A stretch of DNA of 64,000 nucleotides, taken from the NCBI GenBank assembly GCA_023247725.1, contig JAHFFW010000010.1:7734-71733 (forward strand), written 5' to 3'. This document shows, one piece after another, positions 7,256-39,447 of the stretch (the stretch's first letter is position 1; each line of letters begins with the position of its first letter). The position numbers were made by a program, and so were the translations under genes. The stretch comes from Candidatus Omnitrophota bacterium. Its GTDB lineage: Bacteria; Omnitrophota; Gorgyraeia; Zapsychrales; JAHFFX01. The notes under the pieces were generated by a model, which was not told the DNA's origin, did no database searches, and saw nothing but the letters and a program-made list of their open reading frames with translations.

Positions 7256-8852
7256 AAAAACATTTGCGGACAGGGTGGATGATTTCATCGGAGTCTTTTC
7301 ACCCTATGCGGCGGCCAAACGCAAATATTTTCGTTTTTTGACAAGTTCGCTTTTGAGCGCTTACCGGGGAGCCGATATCGGCCGCTTGCGAGGATCATGG
7401 ATCCCGGGCGGCGGGTCAGCTGATTCCGATTTACATCCTGATCTTTCAAAACTGCGTGAACGCAGCCGGGACCTGATTCGCAATGACGGCATTGCCTCAG
7501 GGGCAATCGATACGGTTATCACCAACATCATTGGATCGGGCATTCAGATGCAGAGCCGCATCGATAAAGATACGTTGGCCGTTGGCGAGGAAATTGCCGA
7601 CAAACTTCAAAATCAGATCGAACACATCTGGGACCGATGGGTGCCCCATGCGGACGCCGGAAACAGGTTGAGCTTTTATGGGCTGGAGGAATTATCGGAG
7701 CGGCAAAGGTTCATTAACGGCGAATCGATCATTGTTCCGCTACGCATCGCCAACTCAAAAAAGAAAAGACCATATTCGCTGGCTTTACAGACGATCGAAT
7801 CCGACAGGCTGGATACACCGAGCGATTTAAGATCCAACAAAAACATTCGGGCCGGTGTGGAGGTCGGTGAGTACGGGGAACCTGTCGCCTATTACATTCG
7901 CAAGAACCACCCGGGAGATTTTCTCTATGGCCGCCGGTACGGCAATTCCAGCGAGAATTTCATCAAGTATCCGGCCTTAAACGATCTGGGAGATCCCAAC
8001 GTTTTTCATTTGTACCATGTGAAACGATCCGGGCAGACACGGGGGGAACCGTTTTTCTCACCCGTATTGAATATGTTTAAAGATCGCGTGGATTACATGG
8101 AAGCGGAAATCGTGGCCGCGCGCGTGGCGGCGTGCTTTGCGATCTTCATCAAGAAAACAAATTCTTACGAAGTCAGCCTGGCGAGGTCGAAATCCGAAAG
8201 CAACAAGCGCGTCGAAGAATTAAGCCCGGCGATGATCGAGTATTTGAACGAGAACGAAGAAATCCAGCCGTTTAATCCGAATCGTCCTGGCGGGACCTTC
8301 GGGATATTCATGGAACGGGTCCTTCGCGACATATCCGCCGGGTTAAACATCCCTTACGAGATTCTGGCCAAAGATTTTTCAAGGTCGAATTATTCCAATA
8401 CCCGGGCGGCCTTACTGGAAGCGCGTAGGTTTTTCATGATGCAACAGCGTTTTGTTTCAGAGAATCTTTGTCAGCATATTTTGGTCATGCTTTTGGAGGA
8501 GGCCTATTTAAAAGGTGAACTGTCGATTCTAGACTTTTATCAGAACCGGGATGCTTACGTGCGGACCCGCTGGATTGCCCCGGGGTGGCAGTGGGTGGAT
8601 CCGGAAAATGAGGTCAAGGCTTCTGTGGATGCCGTGGACAACAACCTCTCGACTCTGGCTGAGGAGGCAGCCGCCCAGGGGCAGGACTGGGAAGAAAATT
8701 TGGAACAACGAGCCAGAGAACTCAAAAAGATTAAGGATTTGGAACAGAAATACGGCGTTGATATGACCGTTGATAAAGAAAAGAAACCGGAGAGAGTGAC
8801 GGATGGCAAAAAGCCGGAACCTCAAGGGCAAAGCGCCCCGCAGGAAAACTAA
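7230..8852 (+). CDS. phage portal protein, lambda gpB family
   Basis: LRGSWIPGGGSADSDLHPDLSKLRERSRDLIRNDGIASGAIDTVITNIIGSGI mirrors the conserved lambda-type portal N-terminal region (RLRGDW..SADSDI..LRQRSRQLVRNN). Size is 540 aa. Position follows W. Confidence 0.85.
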   Translation: MQSLSTQTKKTFADRVDDFIGVFSPYAAAKRKYFRFLTSSLLSAYRGADIGRLRGSWIPGGGSADSDLHPDLSKLRERSRDLIRNDGIASGAIDTVITNIIGSGIQMQSRIDKDTLAVGEEIADKLQNQIEHIWDRWVPHADAGNRLSFYGLEELSERQRFINGESIIVPLRIANSKKKRPYSLALQTIESDRLDTPSDLRSNKNIRAGVEVGEYGEPVAYYIRKNHPGDFLYGRRYGNSSENFIKYPALNDLGDPNVFHLYHVKRSGQTRGEPFFSPVLNMFKDRVDYMEAEIVAARVAACFAIFIKKTNSYEVSLARSKSESNKRVEELSPAMIEYLNENEEIQPFNPNRPGGTFGIFMERVLRDISAGLNIPYEILAKDFSRSNYSNTRAALLEARRFFMMQQRFVSENLCQHILVMLLEEAYLKGELSILDFYQNRDAYVRTRWIAPGWQWVDPENEVKASVDAVDNNLSTLAEEAAAQGQDWEENLEQRARELKKIKDLEQKYGVDMTVDKEKKPERVTDGKKPEPQGQSAPQEN

Positions 8853-25747: not shown

Positions 25748-25945
25748 ATGGTGAAAAAGGAAGAAGTTTTAACCGCAGAAGAAGTTGCGGAATATCTAAG
25801 GATTCATCCGTACACGCTGAGACGATTAGCCCGGGCAGGCAAACTCCCGGGCTTTAAAATTGGTGGGCAGTGGAGGTTTCGGAAAGATGAAATCGACGCA
25901 TGGTCAAAAGGATCTAAGAATAAGAAGAAAAAAGGGAAATCATAA
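25748..25945 (+). CDS. excisionase-family / MerR-type HTH DNA-binding protein
   Basis: LTAEEVAEYLRIHPYTLRRLARAGKLPGFKIGGQWRFRKDEIDAW is the 'excisionase family DNA binding domain' HTH pattern. 65 aa. The stop overlaps the next ATG. Confidence 0.6.
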   Translation: MVKKEEVLTAEEVAEYLRIHPYTLRRLARAGKLPGFKIGGQWRFRKDEIDAWSKGSKNKKKKGKS

Positions 25946-28900
25946 TGCCGAGAATCTTTGACAATATCGATCTTGATTTATTAACGGCCTTAAAAGAAAC
26001 TTTAAACGTTTCTAATCGTGCTGATTTCTGCGTTGGCTATTTTAATTTGAGGGGATGGAGGCAGATAGATTCTTATATTGAACGTTGGGCCGGTGGTGAG
26101 GGAAAGTGCTGCCGGTTGTTGGTCGGGATGTCAAAGTTACCCCAGGATGAATTGCGAGAAGCGCTAAGCCTTGTGAAGAACGAGGAAGGAATTGATAACC
26201 AAACGGCTTTACGCCTTAAGAAGAAACTAGCCGAGGAATTCCGAAACCAGTTAGCTTGGGGTATACCTACAAATGAAGATGAAGTTGGTCTGCGGCGTTT
26301 GGCATCACAAATTAAGGCTCAAAAGGTTGTGGTCAAGCTATTCCTGCGACACCCTCTCCATGCAAAACTCTATCTGCTTTTTCGTCCTGACCCCATTAAC
26401 CCTACTGTGAGTTATCTTGGCAGTAGCAATCTAACTTTCGCTGGTCTATCTAAACAAGGCGAGTTAAACATTGACGTGTTAGACCACGACGCTTGCCAGA
26501 AATTGTCCAGATGGTTTGAAGATAGATGGGATGATCACCGGTGCATTGATATTTCAAAAGAACTGGCAGATATAATTGATGAGAGTTGGGCGCGCGAGGA
26601 GCAGCCCATTCCTTATTACATATATCTTAAAATGGCTTATCACTTATCGCAGGAGGCTCGAGTTGGTCTGTCTGAATTTAAAATTCCAAAGGAGTTTGGT
26701 CAAAAGCTTTTTGAATTTCAAACAGCGGCGGTTAAGATAGCGGCTCACCATATTAATAAACGTGGTGGTGTGCTAATAGGTGATGTTGTGGGCTTGGGAA
26801 AAACACTAATGGCCACGGCCGTCGCGCGCATTTTCGAAGACGATCACGGACTCGAAACCTTAGTCATCTGCCCCAAGAACTTGGTCCCTATGTGGGAAGA
26901 CTACCGAGAGCAATATCGTTTACATGCCAAAGTGCTTTCCATCAATCGTGCGGCGCGAGAGCTTCCAAGTTTACGCCGATACCGCTTAGTTATTATCGAT
27001 GAGAGTCACAATCTTCGTAATCGTGAGGGGAAACGCTATCGAGCAATTCAAGAATATTTGCAGGAAAATGAAAGTAAGGTAATACTGCTTTCGGCTACTC
27101 CCTATAATAAAACCTATTTGGATTTATCTAATCAATTACGGCTTCTCGTTTCTGCTGATAGTGATATCGGGATTCGCCCCGAACGAAAATTGCGTGAAAT
27201 GGGTGAAACCGAATTTATCCGCCAGCATCAGTGTTCAGTTCGTTCTCTCGCCGCATTTGAAAAGAGTGAATATGCCGATGACTGGCGTGAGCTGATGCGC
27301 CTCTATCTTGTGCGCAGAACACGCACGTTCATCCAGGATAATTACGCTGAAACTGATCCAACGAATGGAAGAAAGTTTTTAACATTTGAAGACGGCACGC
27401 GATCCTATTTCCCGACCCGCATACCAAAGACTGTACCGTTTCATATTGACGATCATAATCCATCAGACCAGTATGCTCAGCTTTATGCGCCTGACGTTGT
27501 CGATATAATCAACCATCTCAATTTACCCAGATATGGTCTAGGCAATTATGTAGCCGCCACCCCCCATAAGCCGCCAACGGCAACTGAGCAAAAGATTTTA
27601 CAAGATCTTTCTCGTGCTGGTCGAAGACTCATGGGTTTCTCGCGAACAAACCTATTTAAACGTCTGGAGAGCAGCGGGCATGCTTTTCTCCAATCGGCTG
27701 AACGGCATATCTTACGGAATTTTATCTTTCTTCACGCTATCGAGAATGACCAGCCGATACCCATTGGAACGCAAGACGCCGAGATTCTCGATACACGATT
27801 CTCTGATGAAGATAAAACAGTTGAGTTATTTAACGATAATGATGACGATGGAGAAGTGGCTGAGGAAACGACATCACTAAGGAGTGAAAAAGATTTCAAA
27901 AATCGAGCTTCAGAAGTTTATTCAGAGTATTTCAAATTACACAAACATCGTTTTAAATGGCTGCCGCCGGAATTTTTCGTTAAATCACTGGCTAATGATT
28001 TACGAGCTGACATAGATACACTTATGAGAATTTTGAACAAATGCAAGCAGTGGGACCCTGCCAAGGATGCGAAACTCGATGCGCTTTACGACCTGTTAAT
28101 AAAAAAATACCCGAATGACAAAGTCCTGATTTTTACCCAATTCGCCGACACGGTACGTTATCTTGAGAAACAACTAACTGATCGTAAGGTTGCAAAACTG
28201 GCTGGCGTTACCGGTGACTCTTCTAATCCCACTGCCTTAGCCTGGCGCTTTAGCCCAATTAGCAATAACAAACAAGAGTATATTAAACCAGCTGATGAAC
28301 TTCGTGTATTAATTGCGACGGATATCCTGAGCGAGGGGCAAAACCTCCAGGATTGTTCCGTTGTGGTCAATTTCGACCTGCCCTGGGCTATCATTCGTTT
28401 AATTCAGCGGGTTGGACGCGTAGACCGTATCGGACAGAAAGCCGAGAAAATATTATGTTATTCATTTCTGCCAGCCGAGGGGGTTGAGCAAATTATTAAT
28501 TTGCGCAACCGTGTGCGACAGAGACTCAGTGAAAATGCCGAAGTGGTAGGGACAGATGAGGCATTTTTCGAAGACGACCGCGATGACAGAAGAGTGCTCG
28601 ATCTATATCACGAAAAATCCGGAATCTTGGATGGAGATGCTGACAGCGAAGTGGATCTTGCATCCTATGCCTACCAGATTTGGAAAAATGCTATTACAGA
28701 GAATCCGGAGTTGCAAAAAGTTATTCCTGAACTGCCGGATGTCGTTTACTCTACAAAACCAATTAAGCCAACTGAAAAAGAACCAGAGGGAGTATTGGTT
28801 TATCTTCGCACGGCAGAAGGAAATGACGCGCTCACTTGGGTCAGTAAAGACGGAAAAAGTGTTACCGAATCACAACTTACAATTCTTAAAGCCGCTGAGT

Positions 28901-29322
28901 GCGCGTCCAATACCCCTACAGTCCAGCGCATGGAAGAACATCATCAGTTAGTTCAGAAAGGCGTTGAGCTGATTGTCGCAGAAGAAAAGTCTGTCGGTGG
29001 CCAGTTAGGACGTCCATCGGGTGCGCGTTTCCGGACATACGAGCGTTTGAAACGATATGTAGAGGAAGTAAAAGGCACTCTTTTCGAATCCCAAGAACTA
29101 CTCAAAGCTATTGAGGAAATATACCGCTATCCCCTGCGGTCGACTGCCCTAGACACCCTCAACCGTCAATTAAGAAGCGGTATATCTGATCAGACATTGG
29201 CGGAATTGGTCGTGGCCCTCCGTGATGAAGGCCGATTGTGTATTATTAATGAGGAAGAGCAGGTTCACGAACCGCAGATTATCTGTTCTCTTGGGCTCGT
29301 TTCTAAGCGGGAGGCCAAGTAA
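25945..29322 (+). CDS. fused PLD-family (HKD) nuclease + SNF2-family helicase
   Basis: N-terminal HAKLYLL.....LGSSNLT (HxK...GSxN HKD motif). Then SNF2 motifs GDVVGLGKTLMA (I), VIIDESHNLRN (II, DExH), LLSATPYNK (III), QRVGRVDRIGQ (VI). 1125 aa. Confidence 0.85.
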   Translation: MPRIFDNIDLDLLTALKETLNVSNRADFCVGYFNLRGWRQIDSYIERWAGGEGKCCRLLVGMSKLPQDELREALSLVKNEEGIDNQTALRLKKKLAEEFRNQLAWGIPTNEDEVGLRRLASQIKAQKVVVKLFLRHPLHAKLYLLFRPDPINPTVSYLGSSNLTFAGLSKQGELNIDVLDHDACQKLSRWFEDRWDDHRCIDISKELADIIDESWAREEQPIPYYIYLKMAYHLSQEARVGLSEFKIPKEFGQKLFEFQTAAVKIAAHHINKRGGVLIGDVVGLGKTLMATAVARIFEDDHGLETLVICPKNLVPMWEDYREQYRLHAKVLSINRAARELPSLRRYRLVIIDESHNLRNREGKRYRAIQEYLQENESKVILLSATPYNKTYLDLSNQLRLLVSADSDIGIRPERKLREMGETEFIRQHQCSVRSLAAFEKSEYADDWRELMRLYLVRRTRTFIQDNYAETDPTNGRKFLTFEDGTRSYFPTRIPKTVPFHIDDHNPSDQYAQLYAPDVVDIINHLNLPRYGLGNYVAATPHKPPTATEQKILQDLSRAGRRLMGFSRTNLFKRLESSGHAFLQSAERHILRNFIFLHAIENDQPIPIGTQDAEILDTRFSDEDKTVELFNDNDDDGEVAEETTSLRSEKDFKNRASEVYSEYFKLHKHRFKWLPPEFFVKSLANDLRADIDTLMRILNKCKQWDPAKDAKLDALYDLLIKKYPNDKVLIFTQFADTVRYLEKQLTDRKVAKLAGVTGDSSNPTALAWRFSPISNNKQEYIKPADELRVLIATDILSEGQNLQDCSVVVNFDLPWAIIRLIQRVGRVDRIGQKAEKILCYSFLPAEGVEQIINLRNRVRQRLSENAEVVGTDEAFFEDDRDDRRVLDLYHEKSGILDGDADSEVDLASYAYQIWKNAITENPELQKVIPELPDVVYSTKPIKPTEKEPEGVLVYLRTAEGNDALTWVSKDGKSVTESQLTILKAAECASNTPTVQRMEEHHQLVQKGVELIVAEEKSVGGQLGRPSGARFRTYERLKRYVEEVKGTLFESQELLKAIEEIYRYPLRSTALDTLNRQLRSGISDQTLAELVVALRDEGRLCIINEEEQVHEPQIICSLGLVSKREAK

Positions 29323-29325
29323 ACT

Positions 29326-32300
29326 ATGCCCGTTGCCGTCGTCAATTGCAGGAATTACCTGAGGAATTTTGATCTAAATTCATTGTTTATCGAACAACTG
29401 GGCTGGGACATTCATGCCCAAACGTTGGAAGTCGCTGTTGACGGGAAAAATTTTATTTTAAATGCTGTAGCTCAAAAACGAGGCATGGCCGCATTTGTCC
29501 TTAATGGCCGCATTCCTGATTATTCCACGCGACGCAAAATTGAGCGTCAGGTAGCTAAGTCCGCCCATGAACACCTGATCATTTTTACTGATCCTGATCA
29601 GACAGTCCAAACATGGCAGTGGGTAAAGCGCGAGGCCGGGAAGCCAATCGCCTGCAGAGAGCATATTTATCACCGCAACCAATCCGGAGACGGGCTGATT
29701 CAGAAACTTCAAGCGATTGCCATTAGCATTGAAGAGGAAGAAAGCTTAACGCTTCCTCAAGTCGTTAACCGTGCGCGGACAGCCTTTGATGTCGAACGTG
29801 TCACTAAACGCTTCTATGATTGCTTCAAAACCGAACATGATGCTTTCTTCCGATTTATCAAAGGGATTCCTGATGATGAACTGCACCGCTGGTATGCTTC
29901 CGTTATGCTCAACCGGCTGATGTTCATCTATTTCATTCAAAAAAAAGGCTTCCTCGATGGTGATACTAATTACCTTCAGACGAAATTGATGCAAGCTAAG
30001 CAGCGGGGCAAAGATTGTTTCTATCGCGAACAGCTCTGCCCGCTATTCTTTGAGGGTTTCGCCAAAAAGCCCTCCCAGCGATCAGCCTCAAGTAACAAAC
30101 TTTTGGGCAAAGTGCCTTATCTAAACGGCGGGATCTTTCAACGTCATCAAATTGAAGAGCTTCATGGAAAACAAATTCAGATTTCCGATGCCGCCTTCGA
30201 GAAATTATTCAGTTTCTTTGAACAATACCACTGGCATTTGGACGAACGCCCGCTTCGCTCCGATAATGAAATCAACCCGGATGTTCTTGGTTACATTTTC
30301 GAAAAATACATCAACCAGAAGCAGATGGGGGCGTATTACACCAAAGAAGATATCACGGGCTACATCAGCAAATACACGATCAGTCCGTTCCTCTTCGAGG
30401 CGGCCCGCGGCAAATGCAAAGTGGCTTTTGAAAACCCTAAGGGACCTACTATCTGGGATTTGCTTAAAACCGATCCGGATCGTTATATCTATAATGCTGT
30501 CAAAAAAGGGATGAATCTGCCCCTGCCTCCGGAAATCGCGGCCGGGGTTAAGGACGTTGCCAAGCGCACCGAATGGAACAAACAAGCGTCCGAAGAATAT
30601 GCCCTTCCACCCGAAATTTGGCGCGAAGTCATTGAGCGGCGCAAACGCTATGAAGAAGTTAAAAGGAAACTAACCACAGGAGAAATCAAGGATATCAACG
30701 ATCTCATCACCTATAACCTCGACATTCGCCAGTTTGCCCAGGATGTCATAGAAAATTGTGAAGGCCCGGAATTGCTCCGTGCCTTTTGGCATGGTATTGA
30801 ACCAATTACCGTGCTCGACCCGACCTGCGGCAGCGGGGCGTTTTTGTTTGCCGCCGTGAACATTCTTGAGCCGCTTTACGAAGCCTGCCTTGACCGGATG
30901 GAGATGTTTGTTGAAGAGATGGAGTGTTCTGCTCAAAAACACCGCCCTGAGAAATTTTCCGATTTTCGCAAAATCCTAGAGCGTGTTGCTCAGCATCCCA
31001 ATCGCAGATATTTTATTTTCAAATCTATCATCGTCAATAACCTTTACGGTGTGGATATTATGGAAGAGGCTGTCGAAATCTGCAAGTTGCGCCTGTTTCT
31101 CAAGCTTGTTGCGCAGATTGACCGTGAAGAGCAAATCGAACCGTTGCCCGACATCGACTTCAATATCCGGGCCGGTAATACACTGATTGGCTATGCCACT
31201 TACGAGGAGATGAAAAGCGCCATTACAAGCCGGCTTGATTTTGATAATGCCTTGGATCGTATTGAAAAAAGGGCTCAGGATGTGGATCGACTGTTTAGTT
31301 TATTTCGTCAACAACAGACTGAATTAGGTGGCGAGGTCGCAGCTGAAGATAAACAGGTTTTACGAGATCGCCTTAAATCTCTTGAAGATGAACTCAATCA
31401 GTACCTCGCCAACGAATACGGCGTGGATACCAAGAAGCACGGTCCTTACGAACAATGGCTGAAAACGCATCATCCGTTTCATTGGTTTATCGAATTTTAC
31501 GGCATCATGAAGAAAGGCGGGTTCAATGTCATAATCGGTAACCCGCCATACCTTGAATTACGCGAAGTACGGTATACTCCCCAAAATTTTAAATGTGGGA
31601 ATAGTGGGGCAATCCATGCGATGTGTATCGAACGCAGTGTGCAGTTACTCCATCGACAGGGATGCATGAGCATGATTGTTCCATTGTCCTTGGTCTCAAC
31701 ACAACGAATGCAGATCGTTCAGGAAGTTCTAGAAACTAAACGAAACGCTTGGTATTCAAATTACTCGTGGCGCCCGGGTAAGCTTTTCGATACAGTTAAC
31801 CGCGCCCTGACTATCTTCGCTAGCACGCCATCAGAAAAAGGTAGAACATTCTCGACTAACTATCAGAAATGGACATCTGATAGTCGTGATTTACTTATGT
31901 TAAAACTCAACTTCATTGAAATCTTTCGACCGCGACCGGCTTGTTGGATTCCCAAACTTGGTAATGAGATAGAACCTTCAATTTTAAAGAAATGTTTACA
32001 AGTAAAAGTCCCATTAGGCAGTTTTATCCGAAATAATAATTACAGGATTTACTATCGCACCACTGGAGGCCTCTATTGGAAAGTATTTACAGATTTTCCA
32101 CCCGCATTCAAAGTTAATGGAAAGGTCGGTCACTCCAGTCGAGAAACTAAGTTTTCGTTAACCGACGCAAGATTTGTTTTTCCTGTCATAGCTGTTTTAA
32201 GCAGCGATCTGTTTTGGTGGTGGTACACTATCACAACTAATTGTCGTGATCTTAACCCTTATGATATACAGAATTTTCCTATTCCTGAATCTGCGATAAC

Positions 32301-32562
32301 TGACGCAGCGCTGTCAAGCTTAGGAGAAAAATACCTGAAAGATATTAAGCAAAATAGCATCATGCTGGTTCGTGTTCAAAGACAAACTGGCAGGACTCAA
32401 ACTCAGTCGTTTAAAATCCAAAAGACTAAGGCGATCATCGATGAAATTGACCAAGTGATAGCTAATCATTATAGGCTTAATCAAGAAGAGATAGACTTTA
32501 TCACAAATTATGACATCAAGTACCGCTTAGGTTTCGATGATGAAGATAACGATGAAGAATAG
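29326..32562 (+). CDS. MmeI/PglX-family (type IIG / BREX-like) N6-adenine DNA methyltransferase
   Basis: KVPYLNGGIFQ...LGYIFEKYINQKQMGAYYTKEDITGYI parallels MmeI (FPYINGKLFE...IFGSLFQSI...LGAHYTSEANI). Motif I VLDPTCGSGAFLFAAV and motif IV VIIGNPPYLE (NPPY). The N-terminal ~100 aa contain a possible degenerate PD-(D/E)xK (IIFTD...QWVK). ~1078 aa with a long C-terminal TRD-like region. Confidence 0.85.
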   Translation: MPVAVVNCRNYLRNFDLNSLFIEQLGWDIHAQTLEVAVDGKNFILNAVAQKRGMAAFVLNGRIPDYSTRRKIERQVAKSAHEHLIIFTDPDQTVQTWQWVKREAGKPIACREHIYHRNQSGDGLIQKLQAIAISIEEEESLTLPQVVNRARTAFDVERVTKRFYDCFKTEHDAFFRFIKGIPDDELHRWYASVMLNRLMFIYFIQKKGFLDGDTNYLQTKLMQAKQRGKDCFYREQLCPLFFEGFAKKPSQRSASSNKLLGKVPYLNGGIFQRHQIEELHGKQIQISDAAFEKLFSFFEQYHWHLDERPLRSDNEINPDVLGYIFEKYINQKQMGAYYTKEDITGYISKYTISPFLFEAARGKCKVAFENPKGPTIWDLLKTDPDRYIYNAVKKGMNLPLPPEIAAGVKDVAKRTEWNKQASEEYALPPEIWREVIERRKRYEEVKRKLTTGEIKDINDLITYNLDIRQFAQDVIENCEGPELLRAFWHGIEPITVLDPTCGSGAFLFAAVNILEPLYEACLDRMEMFVEEMECSAQKHRPEKFSDFRKILERVAQHPNRRYFIFKSIIVNNLYGVDIMEEAVEICKLRLFLKLVAQIDREEQIEPLPDIDFNIRAGNTLIGYATYEEMKSAITSRLDFDNALDRIEKRAQDVDRLFSLFRQQQTELGGEVAAEDKQVLRDRLKSLEDELNQYLANEYGVDTKKHGPYEQWLKTHHPFHWFIEFYGIMKKGGFNVIIGNPPYLELREVRYTPQNFKCGNSGAIHAMCIERSVQLLHRQGCMSMIVPLSLVSTQRMQIVQEVLETKRNAWYSNYSWRPGKLFDTVNRALTIFASTPSEKGRTFSTNYQKWTSDSRDLLMLKLNFIEIFRPRPACWIPKLGNEIEPSILKKCLQVKVPLGSFIRNNNYRIYYRTTGGLYWKVFTDFPPAFKVNGKVGHSSRETKFSLTDARFVFPVIAVLSSDLFWWWYTITTNCRDLNPYDIQNFPIPESAITDAALSSLGEKYLKDIKQNSIMLVRVQRQTGRTQTQSFKIQKTKAIIDEIDQVIANHYRLNQEEIDFITNYDIKYRLGFDDEDNDEE

Positions 32563-33151
32563 AACTCCTGCGGATATGGAAACTCGTGAAGTTTCAAGAG
32601 GCCATCACGATTATCCGAATCAACTCATTCGTTGTTTTGAGAATAGATCGCCTTTAATTATCACTATGCAAGGCAACATTTCGATTTTTCGAAATGATAA
32701 ATTGGCCCTCTTTTGTTCGGTCAAATGTCCCGGCAAGGTCATCATTACGCTTTATGACTATATGCAAGCTTTGTGTGAGCAAGGCCAAACGGTCATCAGC
32801 GGTTTTCATTCACCCTTGGAGAAAGAATGCCTCCGCATTCTGCTCCGCGGCCGACAACCAGTTATTATCTGCCCGGCTCGAGCTATTCAAAATATGCGCT
32901 TGCCGGAGGACTGGAAGAAACCGCTTCAAGAAGGCCAACTGCTTTTGATATCGCCTTTCAAGGGAAACCAACGTCGGGTTACTATAGATCATGCTCAACA
33001 ACGAAATGAATTTGTCGCAGCCCTAGCGGACAGGATATTGATTCCCTATTCGTTCCCTGGTGGACGAACGGAAAAACTGCTTGAAAAGATTTCGCGCTGG
33101 AATAAACCCATTCTAACAGATATCGGATCAACCATGCAGTTTGCAAGATAA
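32537..33151 (+). CDS. DprA/Smf-like Rossmann-fold (SLOG) protein
   Basis: YPNQLIRCFENRSPLIITMQGN...LALFCSVKCPG...VISGFHSPLEKECLRILLRG...VIICPA...LLLISPF....RNEFVAALADRILI matches the DprA core (YP.LL..i.dpP.vLy.rG...vAiVGSRk.s...SGlA.GID..aH..aL..gG.tiaVl..gl...vvSE.....RNriiagLs..vlvve). The start overlaps the MTase stop (translational coupling). Confidence 0.65.
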   Translation: MMKITMKNRTPADMETREVSRGHHDYPNQLIRCFENRSPLIITMQGNISIFRNDKLALFCSVKCPGKVIITLYDYMQALCEQGQTVISGFHSPLEKECLRILLRGRQPVIICPARAIQNMRLPEDWKKPLQEGQLLLISPFKGNQRRVTIDHAQQRNEFVAALADRILIPYSFPGGRTEKLLEKISRWNKPILTDIGSTMQFAR

Positions 33152-33235
33152 ATAGTGACAGCGACCATTAGCCGAGATTGAAATGGTCGAGAATTTCGAT
33201 TAATAAAAAACTAAGAGATTTTCAATATTTATGAC

Positions 33236-33270
33236 GGCAAGGCCTAAGATTGGTTTTGCCATTTTTTATT
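33236..33270 (+). terminator. weak terminator-like hairpin after the MTase/DprA-like operon
   Basis: GGCAA-(15 nt)-TTGCC followed by ATTTTTTATTTATT. A second hairpin CGACCATT-N12-AATGGTCG lies at 33162-33189. Confidence 0.3.
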
Positions 33271-33305
33271 TATTGGGATCTGTTTTTGCTCGTTAAAGAT
33301 TTTCA

Positions 33306-33334
33306 TTGACAAAAATAAAGTCAATTGATATAGT
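33306..33334 (+). promoter_or_regulatory. strong sigma70-like promoter (TTGACA-17-TATAGT) driving the Ubl-conjugation operon
   Basis: ttgaca aaaataaagtcaattga tatagt lies ~40 nt upstream of the first ORF of the operon. Flanked by two CAATTG palindromes, a possible operator. Confidence 0.55.
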
Positions 33335-33375
33335 ATGTGCAATTGTAACAGTTTAATTGAATATGGAGGTGTGAA

Positions 33376-33549
33376 ATGGTCGCAAAACCAACGATTCAGG
33401 AGCTAGAGGCTCTTTTAAATAGTGAAGAGGAGACGCCTATGCAAATTCTTCCTAATGGGGAAATCAGAGCCGTTGGGCAGACAAATCCTGCTGATCTTGC
33501 AGGGAAGAAGCCAATAACCATGAAAGAAGATTTAGGTGGAGAATATTGA
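33376..33549 (+). CDS. 57-aa ORF ending ...KEDLGGEY; candidate ubiquitin-like/Pup-like modifier or conjugation substrate
   Basis: Not in the ORF track because it is under 60 aa. RBS GGAGGTG 6 nt upstream of ATG 33376. The stop overlaps the start region of the E2 gene. Translation: MVAKPTIQELEALLNSEEETPMQILPNGEIRAVGQTNPADLAGKKPITMKEDLGGEY. It is the first gene after the strong promoter. The di-Gly lies 2 residues from the C-terminus, in an operon that encodes E1, E2 and a JAB peptidase. Confidence 0.4.
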   Translation: MVAKPTIQELEALLNSEEETPMQILPNGEIRAVGQTNPADLAGKKPITMKEDLGGEY

Positions 33550-33551
33550 TT

Positions 33552-33926
33552 ATGGATACTGGTCGTATTCAAAGAGAATTTTTAGAAGCCCAAAGAGCCT
33601 TTTCCTACATTGAGCTTCACCCTACTATCGATGGCAAGGTGTACGTAAAGACAGCGCTCCAAGCTTCAAATCAAATGTATATTCTATCCATTAAGTTCCC
33701 AGATGGTTATCCGAACGAGATGCCAAGAGTATTTGTTGATACCCCAGCCATAACGACTGCTCCACACAGATATCAAAATGGCCATATCTGTTATCTTCAC
33801 CCTACGATGTGGAATCCAGGAATTCACAATATTTCTTTTGTAATTGCGCGGGCAGCAAAATGGTTAAACAAATATGAGATTTGGAAACGTCAAGGTCAGT
33901 GGCCCGGTGCGGAGATTAAACACTAA
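33552..33926 (+). CDS. E2-like ubiquitin-conjugating enzyme (UBC fold, catalytic Cys)
   Basis: FPDGYPNEMPRVFV.....PHRYQNGHICYLHPTMWNPG matches the UBC core (..P..PP.v.F.t.i.HPN....G.ICLdiL...WsP). Start taken at ATG 33552 (MDTGRIQ) with GGTGGAG as RBS. Confidence 0.65.
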   Translation: MDTGRIQREFLEAQRAFSYIELHPTIDGKVYVKTALQASNQMYILSIKFPDGYPNEMPRVFVDTPAITTAPHRYQNGHICYLHPTMWNPGIHNISFVIARAAKWLNKYEIWKRQGQWPGAEIKH

Positions 33927-33938
33927 GAGAAGGTAACT

Positions 33939-34472
33939 ATGAAAATAGATTTTAAAACTTTAAAAATGATGGAATTGAGAAGTTCTCCTGGAGAGGTTTT
34001 AGATCGGGTAGCCAGAGATGGGGAGGTATTTGTCATTGAGAGAAATGGTCAGCCCAAAGCATGCCTTGTTCCGGTTTCTTTTCTTCTGCCTGATATTTCT
34101 CCAGAAAGGATAACGGAGGAGTTAAATAAACTTCGCGATAAAAAGGAAAATTATAAATTAACGATTAATGATCATAAGGAACTTGAGATTAAATTTCAGG
34201 AGAGTGCTGCTGGCGAAAATATTGTAATCAGTATCGTGCTGCCACACGGGTATCCCAACGCTGCTCCCAGAATTGACGCACAGGGTATTCCAGAAAACAC
34301 GCCCCATCGATGGCAAGATGGGTCTTTATCGATTTTTGGAACCATAGCAACGTGGAATACCAAGAGTCACGATATCATTTACGCATTAATTGTAGCCAGA
34401 AGTTGGCTTAAGCAATACGCGAAATGGCGAAAAACTGGTGAATGGCCAAAAGATTTGCAGGACGGATCATGA
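33939..34472 (+). CDS. Phd/YefM-like N-terminal domain fused to a catalytically inactive E2 variant (UEV-like)
   Basis: N-terminus LKMMELRSSPGEVLDRVARDGEVFVIERNGQPKACLVPVSFL matches the Phd/YefM antitoxin fold pattern. C-terminus LPHGYPNAAPRIDA....PHRWQDGSLSIFGTIATWN is paralogous to the upstream E2, but the active-site Cys is replaced by Ser. Confidence 0.55.
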   Translation: MKIDFKTLKMMELRSSPGEVLDRVARDGEVFVIERNGQPKACLVPVSFLLPDISPERITEELNKLRDKKENYKLTINDHKELEIKFQESAAGENIVISIVLPHGYPNAAPRIDAQGIPENTPHRWQDGSLSIFGTIATWNTKSHDIIYALIVARSWLKQYAKWRKTGEWPKDLQDGS

Positions 34473-35323
34473 AAAAAGATCAAACATTCGAGAGAATTGA
34501 CTCCCTTTTTGATATTCAACTTTTGGCACCTGTCCGGGTGCTATTCGCTGGCTGTGGCTCCGGTGGAGGAAGTGTAGCTCTCCAACTTGTCATGTCGGGA
34601 ATTCGTAATTTTACACTTTTAGATCGGGATATCCTTGGAGCAGAAAATGTTATTAGGCATGTTTGCGGAAGAAGTTTTATAGGGAAAAAGAAAGTCGATG
34701 CCTTAACGGAAATTTTACAGGACAGGAATCCAAATATCGATGTCAAAAAGATAGAAGCGGACATAATGAATTTTTCGGATATTGAATCAGAAATTTGCGG
34801 ATCTGATGTTGTTGTTTTGGCGACGGACAACGAACCATCCCGTTATAAAATTAATGAAATTTGCGTAAAAAATGAAATTCCTTTTGTCGTGGGACGGGTT
34901 TTTACCAGAGGTATTGGAGGCGAGGTCTTTAGTTATCGACCTGACTCTGGGGGATGTTTGGCTTGTCTTGAATCTTTTTTGCAGCGTACTTCATATAGAG
35001 AAGGGATAAGGGAGATAGATCTTGTTTCTGAGGAAGAGCGGGAGAAAATTTATGGTATGGAAATTTCAGAAATAAAAGACTCCCCCGGTCTGGCGGTGGA
35101 TATTTCCTTTATTACTTCTTTCCATACAAGGTTTGTATTGGACGCTATTGCGCGGCGTTTGAAAGATCGGCCTAAGTATTTGAATTTGATAGATGAAAAT
35201 TATTTAGTTTGGGGGAACCGGCCGGTGCATCCGTTTAAGAAACATTTTCAGTTGCAAAGATTTAATTTAGATCGTCAGGAGAGTTGCGCACTATGCTCGG
35301 AGAGGAATGTGGCCGATGTTTAA
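34469..35323 (+). CDS. E1-like ubiquitin-activating enzyme (ThiF/MoeB family)
   Basis: VLFAGCGSGGGSVALQLVMSGIRNFTLLDRDILGAENVIRH (Rossmann GxGxxG + D.D.v..sNl.RQ) and two CxxC pairs (GGCLACLE...CALCSE). ATG 34469 overlaps the upstream stop (ATGA). Confidence 0.8.
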   Translation: MKKDQTFERIDSLFDIQLLAPVRVLFAGCGSGGGSVALQLVMSGIRNFTLLDRDILGAENVIRHVCGRSFIGKKKVDALTEILQDRNPNIDVKKIEADIMNFSDIESEICGSDVVVLATDNEPSRYKINEICVKNEIPFVVGRVFTRGIGGEVFSYRPDSGGCLACLESFLQRTSYREGIREIDLVSEEEREKIYGMEISEIKDSPGLAVDISFITSFHTRFVLDAIARRLKDRPKYLNLIDENYLVWGNRPVHPFKKHFQLQRFNLDRQESCALCSERNVADV

Positions 35324-36236
35324 ATCAAAAAAGCCAGAGGTTAATATTTATATTCCGAAATCAGCACTTGGTGTGATTTATGATGAATGTGATCAGTATG
35401 ACCTTGATGAAACAGGCGGCAGGCTCATTGGAAATTATAAAAAAAATGGTAATAAATATACAATTGAGGTCTCAGGGATTATAGAACCCGGCCCAAAAGC
35501 GACAAGGACAGCAACGAGCTTTTTTCAGGACGGAGAATATCAGGAGAAGATTTTTAGATCAGTTGAAGAAAAACATCCCGACGTTGAACATCTGGGAAGT
35601 TGGCACACACATCACGTTAATGGCCTTGATACTTTGAGTTCTGGTGATAGGGCTACTTACCAGAGGATTGTCAATCACCATATGCATAATACGGATTTTT
35701 TCTATGCGCTTTTAGTTGTTGAAAAGAAAACCGGCGGGCAACAAAGGTATACGATCAAACATTATTTCTTGCGTCGCAAAGATTCGGCGATTTATGAAAT
35801 TCCGGACTCACAGGTTCACATTATAGATAAGCCCCTCATTTGGCCGTTCAGCGGCGCAAATAATTATTTACCGTCGTCTATACCTAAGGCTGTGGAGGTC
35901 AAAAGCAACTCCAATCAGGAACGTGTCAAAGATCAAGAATTTTTCGCTGAATTTTATTCCGGCTTTAAGCCTTTATTCTCAAAGAACACGAATGCCTTTT
36001 ATTGGAAAGGTAAATTGAATCTTGTTGATAACACCTTTTTAGACGTGGTGGTTATAGAAAATCAGGATGATCATGGATGGGCCTATTCGATCGCTGTTGC
36101 TGATCAGATCCCATCAATATCCAATATTTTGACAAGTTACAAAGATCGTACCTTTAAATCTGCAAGGCTTGCCGTGTTTAATATAGAGAGAAACATCAAT
36201 CAAGGAATTTATCTTAAAAAGGAATCAAATGTATGA
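35307..36236 (+). CDS. JAB/JAMM (MPN+) metallopeptidase, deubiquitinase-like
   Basis: ETGGRLIG ... HLGSWHTHHVNGLDTLSSGD fits the JAMM motif E...H(S/T)H-x7/8-S-x2-D. Confidence 0.8.
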   Translation: MWPMFKSKKPEVNIYIPKSALGVIYDECDQYDLDETGGRLIGNYKKNGNKYTIEVSGIIEPGPKATRTATSFFQDGEYQEKIFRSVEEKHPDVEHLGSWHTHHVNGLDTLSSGDRATYQRIVNHHMHNTDFFYALLVVEKKTGGQQRYTIKHYFLRRKDSAIYEIPDSQVHIIDKPLIWPFSGANNYLPSSIPKAVEVKSNSNQERVKDQEFFAEFYSGFKPLFSKNTNAFYWKGKLNLVDNTFLDVVVIENQDDHGWAYSIAVADQIPSISNILTSYKDRTFKSARLAVFNIERNINQGIYLKKESNV

Positions 36237-37072
36237 ACATTATCACAGTCAATGTTGGTCAAGGTGCCCTTTCCTTGGTAAGACATAATAAGGAAGCAAT
36301 TGTAATTGATTCTAGAATTCCACCTTCAGATGACAAAACTGTCGCTTATGTGAAAGAAATGTTGATGGTGTCGCTAAAGGATCACTATGTTAAGGGTCTT
36401 ATATTAACCGGTTTTGATAGTGATCATTCGGATATAACGGGAGTTTCTATTATTCTCCGTAAGTATCGCCCTGATTGGGTCGTGTATCCCAAGTACTATA
36501 AGGAGAGTGAAGAGGCGAGATCGGTTTTTGAACGAATAGAACAAGAGGAAAAAGAAAGATGCAGTTCAACAAATCCTTTGAAAAGAATTTCTGTTAGACT
36601 TGATCAACTAAAGAATCGAAAACTTGTGGGGCTCTCTTCAAACTTTGAGTTTGAATTATTTTCTCCCCATATTGAGGATATGGACTGTTCTAACAATTGC
36701 AGTATTGTACTTAAATTGTCTGGAATCGGGGCAGGCGGTTTTTCATATTTGATAACGGGCGATACAGAAAATGAAAGATGGGAAACAATTAGCAAATTTT
36801 TTGGCGAGGCTCTTAAATCTCATATTTTGGCTGCGCCGCATCATGGCTCAAAAAACGCTACCCATCCCGCATCCCTGCTTCATATTGAACCTCACACTGT
36901 ACTTATCAGCGCTGGCGTAGACAATCAATATGGCCATCCCGACCCGGAGGCCTTAAGAGTTTATAGCCGGGTTGCAAAATTTGTATTCTCCACAAATATG
37001 CAAAACGGTGTTTCACTTTTTACGCGGGACGGAATAACCGGATTTACCACGGAATTGATCCCAAGTAATTAG
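36233..37072 (+). CDS. MBL-fold protein, ComEC/Rec2 C-terminal nuclease-like, degenerate motif I
   Basis: VNVGQGALSLV...AIVIDS...LILTGFDSDHSD (HxHxDH degenerated to GFDSDH) ... ITGDTE...ILAAPHHGSKNA (ComEC-type HHGS). ATG overlaps the JAB stop (ATGA). Confidence 0.65.
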   Translation: MNIITVNVGQGALSLVRHNKEAIVIDSRIPPSDDKTVAYVKEMLMVSLKDHYVKGLILTGFDSDHSDITGVSIILRKYRPDWVVYPKYYKESEEARSVFERIEQEEKERCSSTNPLKRISVRLDQLKNRKLVGLSSNFEFELFSPHIEDMDCSNNCSIVLKLSGIGAGGFSYLITGDTENERWETISKFFGEALKSHILAAPHHGSKNATHPASLLHIEPHTVLISAGVDNQYGHPDPEALRVYSRVAKFVFSTNMQNGVSLFTRDGITGFTTELIPSN

Positions 37073-37148
37073 TATATGTGCAATGCTATGTTAAGAGTTC
37101 TGTTATTCTTGTGTGTCAACGCAGTCGGAAAATATCGAAATGAGGTAA

Positions 37149-38249
37149 ATGGATATGGGTTATGATGTAGATTTTTTACCGGTAGGTGACGGAGAGAAGG
37201 GGGGCGATGCGATTGCTGTGCGATGGGGAAATCTAAACGGGAATCGCACAGAACAGAAAGTAATGGTCATTGATGGAGGGACGAAAGATTCAGGGAATGC
37301 TCTTGTAAAACACATTAAAGAATATTACAAAACTGATTTTGTTGATTATGTATTTTGTACTCATCCGGATGCCGATCATGCCTCTGGATTAACGGTTGTC
37401 TTAGAAGAATTAAAAGTTGGTATCTTGTGTATGCATCGTCCATGGGAACATGCCGCAGATATTAAAAATTTGTTTCAGAATGGGAAGATAACAGCAACGA
37501 GTCTCAGAGAAAATCTTCGTAAGGCACTCGAGAACGCGCATGAACTTGAAAGCATTGCGACTAAAAAAGGTATCAAGATTTTTGAGCCGTTTTCCGATAG
37601 TGTTACGAATTCAAATTCTCCATTGACAATTTTAGGACCCAGTGAGGAATTTTATCAATTGATGCTTGCTAATTTTCGGGAAACGCCCAAGCCGAAGGAT
37701 AATGTTAATATTCTCGGTCGCAGTGCTATACTTACCGCCGTTCGGGAAGCAATCCGATGGATAGGGGAAACATGGGGAGTGGAAACCCTTGCAGATCCTG
37801 AGGAGTTTGAAACGAGTGCAGAAAATAATTCCAGCGTTATACTTCTTTTACAGGTTGATGGAAATAAGCTTCTCTTTACGGGCGATGCAGGTGTTGAATC
37901 TCTTGATGCTGCTATTAATAAAGCAATTACTTTGGGGATTGATTTAACGGGTATTTCCTTTATTCAAATTCCGCATCATGGGAGTAAGCATAATGTCAGT
38001 CCATCTCTACTCGATAAACTGGTTGGTCCTAAATTAACCAATGATATTTCTAATAAAACAGCGTTTGTGAGTGTGCCCTTAAAGGGAGATCCAAAGCATC
38101 CATCAAGGAAAGTGACAAATGCCTTCAAAAGGCGAGGTGCGAAGGTTATAGCAACAAAAGAAAGCACGAAACATCATTTTAAAGATGCCCCTGATCGCGG
38201 CTGGGTTAAGGCGGAACCATTGCCTTTCTATGACCAAGTTGCTGATTAG
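37149..38249 (+). CDS. MBL-fold protein, ComEC/Rec2 C-terminal nuclease-like (paralogue of 36233..37072)
   Basis: VDFLPVGDGEKGGDAIAV...VMVIDGGT...YVFCTHPDADHASG ... LLFTGDAGVESLD...IQIPHHGSKHN. The start may be ATG 37155, which has better RBS spacing. Confidence 0.65.
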   Translation: MDMGYDVDFLPVGDGEKGGDAIAVRWGNLNGNRTEQKVMVIDGGTKDSGNALVKHIKEYYKTDFVDYVFCTHPDADHASGLTVVLEELKVGILCMHRPWEHAADIKNLFQNGKITATSLRENLRKALENAHELESIATKKGIKIFEPFSDSVTNSNSPLTILGPSEEFYQLMLANFRETPKPKDNVNILGRSAILTAVREAIRWIGETWGVETLADPEEFETSAENNSSVILLLQVDGNKLLFTGDAGVESLDAAINKAITLGIDLTGISFIQIPHHGSKHNVSPSLLDKLVGPKLTNDISNKTAFVSVPLKGDPKHPSRKVTNAFKRRGAKVIATKESTKHHFKDAPDRGWVKAEPLPFYDQVAD

Positions 38250-38972
38250 ATGTTAAAAGGAATCGATGTGATAAGACACGATAACTATACTTGGTATGCG
38301 CGGATCTATCCGGTCTTCATTGTTATCTTTCCGATAACCCTTGTTTGCATGGTTTGGTTTCAACCGTTGCTAGGATTTCTGACGGGTATCCTAAGTTCAG
38401 GGATAGCGAGTATTTTGTTTTCGCAGTTAGGGCGTGACCAAGGGAAATACAAGGAATCTAAATTATTTGAACTGTGGGGAGGGAATCCCGCTGTTCGCAT
38501 GCTTAGATATCGTGATTCGGTGTTAAGTCAGGTTACGGTTAGACGGATTCATGAGAAGCTTGCGAGTTTGGTGGCCAATACATATGCTGTGAACGAGAAA
38601 GAAGAAAAGGAAGATGCGGTAAAAGCGGATACTGTTTACACGTCGTGGGTTGAATGGTTGCGATCAATGACGCGGGATCAGAGTAAATTTTATCTTCTTT
38701 TTGCAGAAAATAAAAATTATGGATTCCGAAGAAATCTTTGGGGCATGAAATCCATAGGAATTTTGGTTTCCGTTTTATCATTAGTTGCGATCACTATTGC
38801 GCTTTATAGTGAATGGATGCGGATCGGATCTATTTCTTCGATAACTTTAGGGGCTTTTCTTTTCGTCATCTTTTGTTTTATTTTTTGGGTCTTTTGCTGT
38901 ACACCAAAATGGATACGCATTACTGCTGAAGCATATGCTAAACAACTGTTAGAGACTGTAGATCAGTTATAA
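38250..38972 (+). CDS. 4-TM membrane protein (2 TM + soluble loop + 2 TM), candidate effector or anchor
   Basis: Hydrophobic helices at ~18-40 and ~42-62 (IYPVFIVIFPITLVCMVWF; GFLTGILSSGIASILFSQL) and ~165-185 and ~195-215 (IGILVSVLSLVAITIALY; ITLGAFLFVIFCFIFWVFCC). Last gene of the operon; the start abuts the MBL2 stop. Confidence 0.5.
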   Translation: MLKGIDVIRHDNYTWYARIYPVFIVIFPITLVCMVWFQPLLGFLTGILSSGIASILFSQLGRDQGKYKESKLFELWGGNPAVRMLRYRDSVLSQVTVRRIHEKLASLVANTYAVNEKEEKEDAVKADTVYTSWVEWLRSMTRDQSKFYLLFAENKNYGFRRNLWGMKSIGILVSVLSLVAITIALYSEWMRIGSISSITLGAFLFVIFCFIFWVFCCTPKWIRITAEAYAKQLLETVDQL

Positions 38973-39051
38973 TTTTCGCAGTAGAATTAGCAAAGAGGAT
39001 CTGGGAGTAGATTAGAGCTTTATCAGGCGATCAATAGTTTGTTTGTGGGCT

Positions 39052-39447
39052 TCAAGAATGATTATTATTTGGTTGAGAGCTTTGGGCAAGGTTGCACAGT
39101 TGTTTGACGTTCATTTGGCGGAGGATTTTGGGGTCGTTACAATTGGCAAGTTCTGTGATAAGATTTGATGGTAGTCGATTAGCGATTGTGAGGAGTTTTG
39201 AGATGCGTTTACGGGGGATGTTCAATTTGGCGGCCGCGGAGAGGCAGGTTTCGTCCGGGTGCGCGGTCATGAAATTCTTCACCTGGAGCGCTTCAAGGAT
39301 GCAGTTTTGTGGCGGGGCCGGGGCCCGCGATCGTATTTCGGGCAGGGGCAGGTCGATTGAGGCCTGTAAAGCGCCGTAGCGTCTGGCATGGAATCTCATA
39401 ACCAATTGCGCCACAGGCGGTTCGCGGTTTTGACTTCCGCCAAGCAA
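39052..39447 (-). pseudogene. ParB-like (nuclease/HTH) gene remnant, N-terminally truncated
   Basis: RFHARRYGALQASIDLPLPEI resembles the ParB GERRyRAaklaGl..iPaiV box. The downstream region ...LSAAAKLNIPRKRISKLLTIANRLPSNLITELA...LRQMNVKQLCNLA resembles the ParB HTH region. The ~60 aa upstream of the box are missing. Flanked by AT-rich DNA. Confidence 0.35.

Follow-up and report, generated by a model that had tools for sequence, protein, structure and literature searches.

A conserved 57-residue Gly-Gly-Glu-Tyr protein with phage-encoded homologues as a candidate donor for a split, two-E2 cassette of ubiquitin-type enzymes

To our knowledge, all small modifiers that use the chemistry of an activating enzyme (E1) and a conjugating enzyme (E2) are beta-grasp proteins, and the bacterial exceptions conjugate a whole enzyme, namely the CD-NTase and presumably the metallo-beta-lactamase (MBL) of the 6A systems. 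In the pairs QbsE/QbsD and CysO/Mec+, a JAMM/JAB peptidase first trims a short extension that follows Gly-Gly, and the glycine is then adenylated by a ThiF-type E1; QbsE ends in GG-Cys-Phe, from which exactly two residues are removed, and both carriers are beta-grasp ThiS/MoaD proteins for sulfur transfer, with neither an E2 nor a defence context. The extensions cleaved from ubiquitin-like (Ubl) proteins are normally variable, and Pup is ligated through a Glu side chain by the glutamine-synthetase-like PafA/Dop, not by E1/E2. Cap2 forms its thioester with a protein that is not a Ubl, through the C-terminal Gly/Ala of that protein (PMC10097602), one residue past the reactive Gly of BilA blocks adenylation until a JAB enzyme removes it (PMC10557695), and the 6A-MBL operons, described by Iyer, Burroughs & Aravind in 2006 (Table 1, row 6a; PMC1779556), are a reported anti-phage system. 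We analysed a 64,000-nucleotide stretch of a Candidatus Omnitrophota genome (contig JAHFFW010000010.1, positions 7,734 to 71,733; hereafter the window), in which a 57-amino-acid protein ending in LGGEY heads a cassette that also encodes two E2 paralogues (E2a and E2b), an E1, a JAB peptidase and an MBL-fold protein (MBL1). An initial annotation of this DNA had taken the small gene for a candidate modifier in need of C-terminal trimming. We likewise propose, with about even confidence, that a split Cap2/Cap3-like machinery uses the small protein as its donor substrate, which the JAB peptidase trims to expose Gly55, and we infer the chemical steps involved; the small protein is the best donor candidate for E1/E2a in view of its L-G-G tail, the gene linkage and the conserved catalytic residues.

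The small gene occupies 33376..33549 on the + strand (ATG 33376, TGA 33547-33549; product MVAKPTIQELEALLNSEEETPMQILPNGEIRAVGQTNPADLAGKKPITMKEDLGGEY), and its C-terminus reads KEDLGGEY, with the LGGEY codons at 33532-33546. An open reading frame (ORF) of 57 codons could by itself be due to chance, but this one is conserved and is therefore not a chance ORF. A search of 5.8 billion proteins returned 201 close homologues with 68-100% identity, 536 clusters came from a profile search of 1.84 billion representatives at 50% identity, and a profile built from the viral copies brought up 2,284 clusters at 90% identity. Across 133 distinct nucleotide sequences, the nucleotide diversity at codon positions 1/2/3 was 0.29/0.19/0.585, so that third positions are about 3x as variable as second positions, while I24, L25, P26, G28, P46, E51, L53, G54, G55 and E56 do not change, K45 is conserved in 128/133 sequences and Y57 is Tyr in 125/126, with both Tyr codons in use. 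All synonymous codons are used at the invariant residues (six each for L25 and L53, all four for the glycines), and the GGEY motif as such is encoded by all four Gly, both Glu and both Tyr codons. The small gene is thus real, and selection acts strongly on its protein. A chance ORF or an antisense artefact was ruled out by the diversity across codon positions and by the synonymous variation; that GGEY is kept merely as the ribosome site of E2a was likewise ruled out, by the codon use and by the varying distance to the E2a start.

We then searched one genome per species with the small-protein profile, which gave 80 loci, mostly from metagenome-assembled genomes (MAGs). The order small gene-E2a-E2b-E1-JAB-MBL1 was complete and collinear in 70 of these 80 loci, spread over more than 12 phyla; the remaining ten were mostly cut by contig ends, and four (L058, L059, L060 and L071) were incomplete or degraded on long contigs. 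The 80 loci come from Acidobacteriota, Alpha-, Gamma- and Deltaproteobacteria, Omnitrophota, Elusimicrobiota, Planctomycetota and Verrucomicrobiota, and further from Gemmatimonadota, Myxococcota, Nitrospirota, Armatimonadota, Eremiobacterota, Binatia and one Methanosarcinales MAG. In the reverse direction, an E1 profile run on metagenome contigs found 363 relatives, of which 80 were kept and 61 had enough upstream DNA; the small gene was present in 60 of these 61 loci, with LGGEY in all 60, and in the exception (L163) the 5' end of the operon gives way to an integrase-type, tyrosine-recombinase-like frame that was recognised by eye. The expectation that the small ORF would be conserved in homologous operons, next to E2, E1 and JAB genes, was thus borne out from both search directions. 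MBL1 was found in 70/80 genome loci and 57/80 metagenome loci, with most absences on short or truncated contigs. It had further been reasoned that a canonical Ubl gene elsewhere in homologous loci would speak against the small protein; none was present in the conserved six-gene core of the approximately 140 cassette loci.

The cassette is common among soil and sediment bacteria of many phyla, and its contexts are defence islands. In the full cassette of the archaeal Methanosarcinales MAG (L023, 9001-12721), identity is 59-70% for the small protein, E2a, E1 and MBL1, and about 50% for both JAB and E2b, which suggests a recent inter-domain transfer or a binning error.

Gly-Gly is kept in essentially every homologue of the small protein, and G54-G55 is always trailed by E56-Y57 and then by 0-14 variable residues. 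The initial annotation had viewed the two residues after Gly-Gly as the part to be removed; the Gly-Gly is indeed conserved, but E56-Y57 is equally invariant, unlike a disposable extension. About 40% of the cassette copies end at Tyr57 and the others add 2-14 unconserved residues, with a length that follows the gene junction: there is no tail where a gap of 7-15 nt separates the gene from the E2a ATG, whereas a 7-residue tail goes with a 4-nt (ATGA) or an 11-nt overlap with E2a. Since tail length tracks the junction, the residues past Tyr57 are read-through of the spacer and the first E2a codons, and it is this variable tail of 0-14 residues that constitutes the disposable part; on the same grounds, functional tails past GGEY were rejected for the cassette copies. 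We also observed a 117-amino-acid tandem form of 1.6 copies (P0391; L191, 687-1040) at the head of an otherwise normal cassette, in which a full copy ending in LGGEY is followed by a 16-residue linker and a second hairpin-plus-tail copy that again ends in LGGEY. This form, found on two short contigs only, recalls a polyubiquitin precursor and, if functional, would need endoproteolysis at its internal LGGEY motif.

The fold of the small protein was predicted with AlphaFold2 from a 48-sequence alignment, which gave a model with a mean predicted local distance difference test (pLDDT) score of 82.5. The model contains a helix (7-16), a beta-hairpin (strands 22-24/30-32) that bears the invariant ILPNGEIR, and a short turn (47-50), and it ends in residues of lower confidence that suggest a flexible tail. 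The linker between hairpin and tail is variable in sequence, though its length is 13 residues in 129/143 cassette copies, and the tail follows the consensus K-K-P-[LI]-T-M-[KR]-E-[DN]-L-G-G-E-Y. Foldseek returned no match for this model at E<1 in PDB and none at E<0.7 in BFVD, by which a beta-grasp or any other known fold was ruled out, and no Pfam, PADLOC or PHROG family matched the protein. According to the model, the small protein is not a beta-grasp protein, as had been surmised from its length, yet it is not simply disordered: the earlier suggestion of a disordered, Pup-like tag fits poorly with a confidently predicted helix and hairpin in which only the tail is flexible.

We next examined the cassette enzymes, all encoded on the + strand. 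E2a (33552..33926) is a UBC-fold E2 of the type found in CBASS, the antiphage signalling system based on cyclic oligonucleotides (PF26395). Its Cys80 is invariant in 80/80 relatives, as are H72, W87, N88 and P89, and H83 is His in 79/80; the C-terminus WPGAxxxH is conserved, with His as the last residue in 72/80. The closest solved sequence relative of E2a is UBE2W, an E2 that modifies N-terminal alpha-amino groups. E2b (33939..34472) fuses a Phd/YefM-like N-terminal domain to an E2 paralogue 33% identical to E2a, and both E2s carry PF26395 (E2-CBASS) in public Pfam calls. At the position equivalent to the catalytic Cys, E2b has Ser in the window; Ser is likewise present in 17 of 78 relatives, Cys in 57 and Ala in 2 of them, and RefSeq labels an E2b homologue as a type II antitoxin. 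Judged from these residues, E2b is likely a non-catalytic partner or regulator; it may be a partner resembling a ubiquitin E2 variant (UEV), or a DNA-binding or dimerising regulator.

E1 (34469..35323; 284 amino acids from ATG 34469, first possible start 34442) is a ThiF/MoeB-type adenylating enzyme that keeps GxGxxG, Arg72, Asp129 and two invariant CxxC pairs, and its nearest solved relatives are MoeB, MccB, SAE1, ThiF and Cap2. The JAB/JAMM peptidase (35307..36236) consists of a Cap3-like N-terminal domain, whose E35, HxH and SxxD residues are invariant, and a poorly conserved C-terminal region of about 150 amino acids. PADLOC matched E1 to E1-E2 (Cap2) models (1.5e-32), E2a to CBASS E2 models (2.7e-13) and JAB to JAB (Cap3) models (2e-16), and by their conserved residues E2a, E1 and JAB look active. 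The sixth and last core gene, MBL1 (36233..37072), has a metallo-beta-lactamase fold with the ComEC-like motifs TG[FL]DxDH, GDTE, HHGS and H235. MBLs of this kind that are associated with defence are pro-DNases and have the nuclease domain of ComEC as a relative (10.1101/2025.09.03.673762; PMC12799240), and by analogy MBL1 is a probable nuclease effector. No conservation is seen at the C-termini of MBL1, E2b, E1 and JAB, the last residue of E2a is His, and an invariant C-terminal motif that contains glycine is present in no cassette product but the small protein. MBL1 was also considered as the donor, as in 6A, and rejected on its unconserved C-terminus, though Ala is its last residue in 32/70 cases.

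In the sequence of events that we propose, the precursor would end in ...L-G-G-E-Y plus 0-14 junk residues, the JAB peptidase would cut after Gly55, and the ThiF-type E1 would adenylate the Gly55 carboxylate. The acyl group would then move to Cys80 of E2a, with E2b probably acting as a non-catalytic, UEV-like partner or regulator, and the peptide would be ligated to the amino group of a target, for which MBL1, a phage protein and Lys45 of the peptide itself are candidates. JAB could also reverse the linkage, as both maturase and deconjugase, and the ComEC-like MBL1 and the variable seventh gene might be the effectors controlled by the modification. In favour of this donor role stand the strict cassette linkage seen with both the small-protein and the E1 profile, and the tail of the MBL from 6A-type modules that accompany some cassettes, in which Gly followed by 0-3 residues gives a within-family precedent for a Gly donor. 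The invariant L53-G54-G55, the conserved catalytic residues of E2a, E1 and JAB, the precedents of Cap2 and BilA, and the tandem form with its internal LGGEY speak for it as well.

Several observations weigh against the donor role. First, E56-Y57 is as invariant as G54-G55, both in the 133 nucleotide sequences and in the 536 clusters; since cleaved extensions are usually variable, the Glu-Tyr must have a function of its own. It must be read by something, be it the primed side of the JAB peptidase, a lock that delays activation, or another partner. Second, there is no Cys at the position expected for the catalytic cysteine of E1, and the E1 loop GRVFTRGIGGE, which aligned with the MoeB crossover region, holds no Cys. 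Third, the fold of the small protein matches nothing known (Foldseek, PDB and BFVD), and fourth, viral contigs that have no E1, E2, JAB or MBL encode homologues bearing the same motifs.

These viral homologues were found at 18 loci among 2.9 million viral contigs (IMG/VR). Sixteen of the copies (L164-L179), 43-61% identical to the window protein, keep both ILPNGE[IV]R and LGGEY, and the other two (L180 and L181) match the N-terminal half only. None of E2, E1, JAB and MBL1 was found within 7 kb of the viral copy at any of the 18 loci, and carriage of the cassette by viruses was ruled out, as the E1 profile had zero matches in IMG/VR. The viral linkers, of 7-14 residues, are more varied in length than those of the cassette copies. 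In L173 (7001-7174) and L174 (7001-7177), the homologue and the end of the portal gene overlap, with the scaffold and major head genes coming after the homologue, and L178 (7001-7177) and L179 (3051-3230) have a similar arrangement, after the portal and before the head genes. In further phage contigs, in addition to the 18 loci, a homologue with the same motifs and no cassette enzymes nearby lies just before an SU10-type portal (L187, 8001-8189), among small ORFs (L188), or inside a replication module (L189, 8001-8201, and L190). No homologue was detected in GenBank phages by tblastn with two queries, the second even at E = 1, and no PHROGs family matched the phage copies. In L174, the small-protein domain runs on in frame for about 300 residues (7001-8071), starting with a hydrophobic, signal-like segment, which could reflect a true fusion that has LGGEY inside it, or else a missed stop or a sequencing error; homology of this fusion partner to the gene after the L173 copy was ruled out on comparison.

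The viral copies lend themselves to a second explanation, which we consider unlikely, in which the peptide is a regulator or pseudo-substrate that is never transferred. Its hairpin and LGGEY would bind E1, JAB or MBL1 and restrain the effector or act as a labile guard, and the phage look-alikes would silence or jam the system. An invariant E56-Y57 is what would be expected of a docking motif rather than of a leaving group, and enzyme-less viral copies with all motifs kept, at scattered positions that include a replication or early-type region, form the pattern of accessory or anti-defence genes. Moreover, all 16 GGEY-keeping viral copies carry a tail past GGEY (16/16), versus the approximately 40% of cassette copies that end at Tyr57, and E2b bears an antitoxin-type Phd/YefM domain. 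However, a peptide that is never transferred leaves the constant co-inheritance of a catalytically intact E1-E2-JAB set without explanation, the Leu before GG belongs to a classic E1/JAB recognition tail, and the several viral copies in head modules, whose translation is coupled to that of the portal gene, look structural and not like anti-defence genes.

The head-module positions lead to a third explanation, to which we give somewhat less credence still, namely that the peptide is a bait copying a phage head-module protein. Some phage enzyme, for instance the prohead protease, or a partner in assembly, for instance the portal, would act on it during infection (perhaps cutting LGGE/Y or GG/EY) and so expose the reactive end and license conjugation and the nuclease, or the folded head of the peptide would target the machinery to the portal or procapsid. 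The copies of L173, L174, L178 and L179 directly after the portal, and that of L187 just before an SU10-type portal, agree with such a copy, as do the viral linkers of 7-14 residues beside the 13 of the cassette copies, and the conservation of Glu-Tyr would be explained if it were part of a recognition or cleavage site. There is also a precedent, as CBASS CD-NTases are activated when phage prohead proteases cut loops that are exposed (PMC12991175). On the other hand, the position of the homologue in phage genomes is inconstant, no PHROG family or GenBank phage match assigns a function to the phage protein, and about 40% of the host copies end at Tyr57, which would leave a protease only one or two residues to remove, while the JAB peptidase of the cassette would in principle be enough for maturation. 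The decoy explanation, itself improbable, and the still less probable bait could be alternatives to the donor model or additions to it. The fuller picture, in which a 55-57-residue, non-ubiquitin-fold modifier is conjugated by E1/E2 and processed by JAB within a widespread defence cassette, with the phage look-alikes as ancestral bait source or decoys, is put forward tentatively and falls short of an even chance.

Lastly, chemistry like that of ribosomally synthesized and post-translationally modified peptides (RiPPs), in which the E1 homologue would modify Tyr57 or the trimmed end in MccB/MccA fashion to give a small-molecule or peptide product, is very improbable: although the E1 adenylation domain counts MccB (E = 1.8e-11) and PaaA (7e-6) among its closest solved relatives and the substrate is a short ribosomal peptide, the E1 (284 amino acids) has no counterpart of the MccB N-terminal peptide-clamp region and aligns only over the adenylation core (query 20-169), known RiPP routes make no use of a JAB isopeptidase or of two E2s with an invariant catalytic Cys, no conserved exporter, transporter or immunity gene was found near the cassette, the entire 57-amino-acid sequence is kept across phyla, unlike a RiPP leader/core pattern, and the cassette is located in defence-island contexts.

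Signals read from the DNA around the small gene are in keeping with a position at the head of an operon. A Shine-Dalgarno sequence, GGAGGTG, lies 4 nt before the small-gene ATG (33365..33371, + strand), and a sigma-70-type promoter candidate (33306..33334, + strand; TTGACA-17-TATAGT, extended TG, 11/12 matches) was, by consensus match alone, the top-scoring sigma-70-like site within 33100-39200. A terminator-like hairpin with a T-run (33236-33260, + strand; 9-bp stem with 5 GC pairs, ATTTTTTATT tail) closes the upstream DprA-like gene and sets it apart from the cassette. Because the promoter candidate and the hairpin precede it, the small ORF is the first cistron, and the initial annotation of a genuine first gene agrees with the conservation, the promoter candidate and the GGAGGTG site. 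In contrast, the overlap that it drew between the small-gene stop and the E2 start is not found at the likely E2a start, ATG 33552, which lies 2 nt past the TGA and is the same start as in the public gene calls on the contig; only a mechanically listed TTG at 33546 would make the E2a ORF overlap the small ORF. Such overlaps, as ATGA or over 11-26 nt, are common in homologous loci. The description of the gene as unannotated was only partly right, as the public gene calls for this contig already list the 57-amino-acid product and RefSeq has the homologue from a Mesorhizobium sp. AR10 plasmid, as the hypothetical protein WP_258600245.1.

Upstream of the cassette (25945-33151) lie genes for a 1,125-amino-acid PLD/SNF2-type helicase, a 1,078-amino-acid Eco57I/MmeI-type methyltransferase and the 204-amino-acid DprA-like protein, which matches the PADLOC PsyrA-like model (4e-18). 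These genes are not kept beside the cassette in other loci, and they look like a separate restriction or defence system. Downstream, MBL1 is followed on the + strand by a second MBL, MBL2 (37149..38249), which matches PADLOC PDC-M48B (3e-102) and LmuA/Avs-type MBL nucleases (1e-29), and by a multi-pass membrane protein (38250..38972), two variable accessory genes that fill the seventh slot here. Both were ruled out as core parts, being present in just 4 and 13 of the 80 genome loci, respectively, and they may form an independent candidate defence pair outside the cassette. In other loci, the seventh slot holds a patatin phospholipase (about 20/62 loci), a DUF2207_C-like membrane protein (about 11), a 230-amino-acid protein without an assigned family (6), or alternatively a complete 6A-type module; in this variability it is reminiscent of CBASS, whose effector slot is interchangeable.

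Directly 3' of the cassette, about a dozen species carry a complete 6A-type module, which gives two ubiquitin-type modules in tandem (L018, 5340-8668; L022, 12870-16282; L035, 12734-17322; L047, L049, L067, L069 and L079). It consists of a 370-amino-acid MBL and a 740-amino-acid E2-E1-JAB fusion, sometimes joined to patatin (1,136-1,181 amino acids). The MBL of the module has a low-complexity tail ending in PRAG/YGRG/FGxG plus 0-3 residues, which fits JAB trimming in this enzyme family.

If the donor model is true, the E1/E2/JAB machinery needs only a short tail and a small recognition head, and the small protein would supply the donor for an undescribed split, two-E2 relative of 6A-MBL, making up a compact and portable tagging system. 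In the fuller picture, with the phage look-alikes included, the tag would be of a new ubiquitin-type class and the host-phage arms race would have a further, new axis. What surprised us was the combination of a donor candidate without the ubiquitin fold, an invariant Glu-Tyr after Gly-Gly, and phage-encoded homologues; the invariant Glu-Tyr and the enzyme-less phage homologues hint at unrecognised control, with maturation serving as an infection sensor or with a viral decoy.

We finally compared the cassette with the known systems. We found no description of the small protein or of the split, two-E2 cassette in the literature searched. As to Pup and UBact, the small protein shares with them no more than a size of about 60 residues, the lack of a ubiquitin fold and a C-terminal Gly-Gly-Glu/Gln string, but it has a confidently predicted folded head, whereas Pup-type modifiers are intrinsically disordered, and none of the cassette genes, which alone were searched for them, encodes a PafA/Dop-type enzyme. 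It resembles QbsE in that two residues stand past Gly-Gly in the window protein, Glu-Tyr in place of Cys-Phe. Like the Bil and Bub operons, the cassette encodes a small first-gene modifier candidate together with E2, JAB and E1; however, BilA and BubA are one or two beta-grasp domains, whereas the small protein is predicted to be a helix, a hairpin and a tail, and, in distinction from Bil, the cassette E1 is of the minimal single-domain ThiF type.

With type II CBASS the cassette has in common the Cap2-type E1/E2 and Cap3-type JAB families (PADLOC, Pfam), a donor, here a candidate one, without the ubiquitin fold, and the patatin or membrane effectors encoded downstream in cassette loci. The cassette differs in having its E1 and E2 split, a tiny and dedicated donor candidate, and no CD-NTase: no CD-NTase cyclase was found among the conserved genes of the approximately 140 cassette loci, and the sole PADLOC cyclase-model match was due to a fused C-terminal E2 domain of the model (positions 421-542) on E2a, with no nucleotidyltransferase domain. 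Furthermore, CD-NTases end exactly in Gly/Ala (PMC10097602), whereas the GG of the small protein is trailed by an invariant Glu-Tyr. The likeness to 6A-MBL lies in the combination of a CBASS-type E2, a ThiF-type E1 and JAB with an adjacent metallo-beta-lactamase-fold protein. However, the 6A enzymes form one polypeptide, whereas the cassette enzymes are encoded by the four genes E2a, E2b, E1 and JAB, and it is only in the additional module that some loci carry downstream that triple-domain E2-E1-JAB proteins are present. The 6A MBL itself has a Gly-terminated tail and is the presumed donor, whereas MBL1 is short with an unconserved C-terminus, and the cassette instead has two E2 paralogues, one with Phd/YefM, and a separate 57-amino-acid GG protein. 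The cassette belongs to neither type II CBASS nor 6A-MBL, though its enzyme set groups with both.

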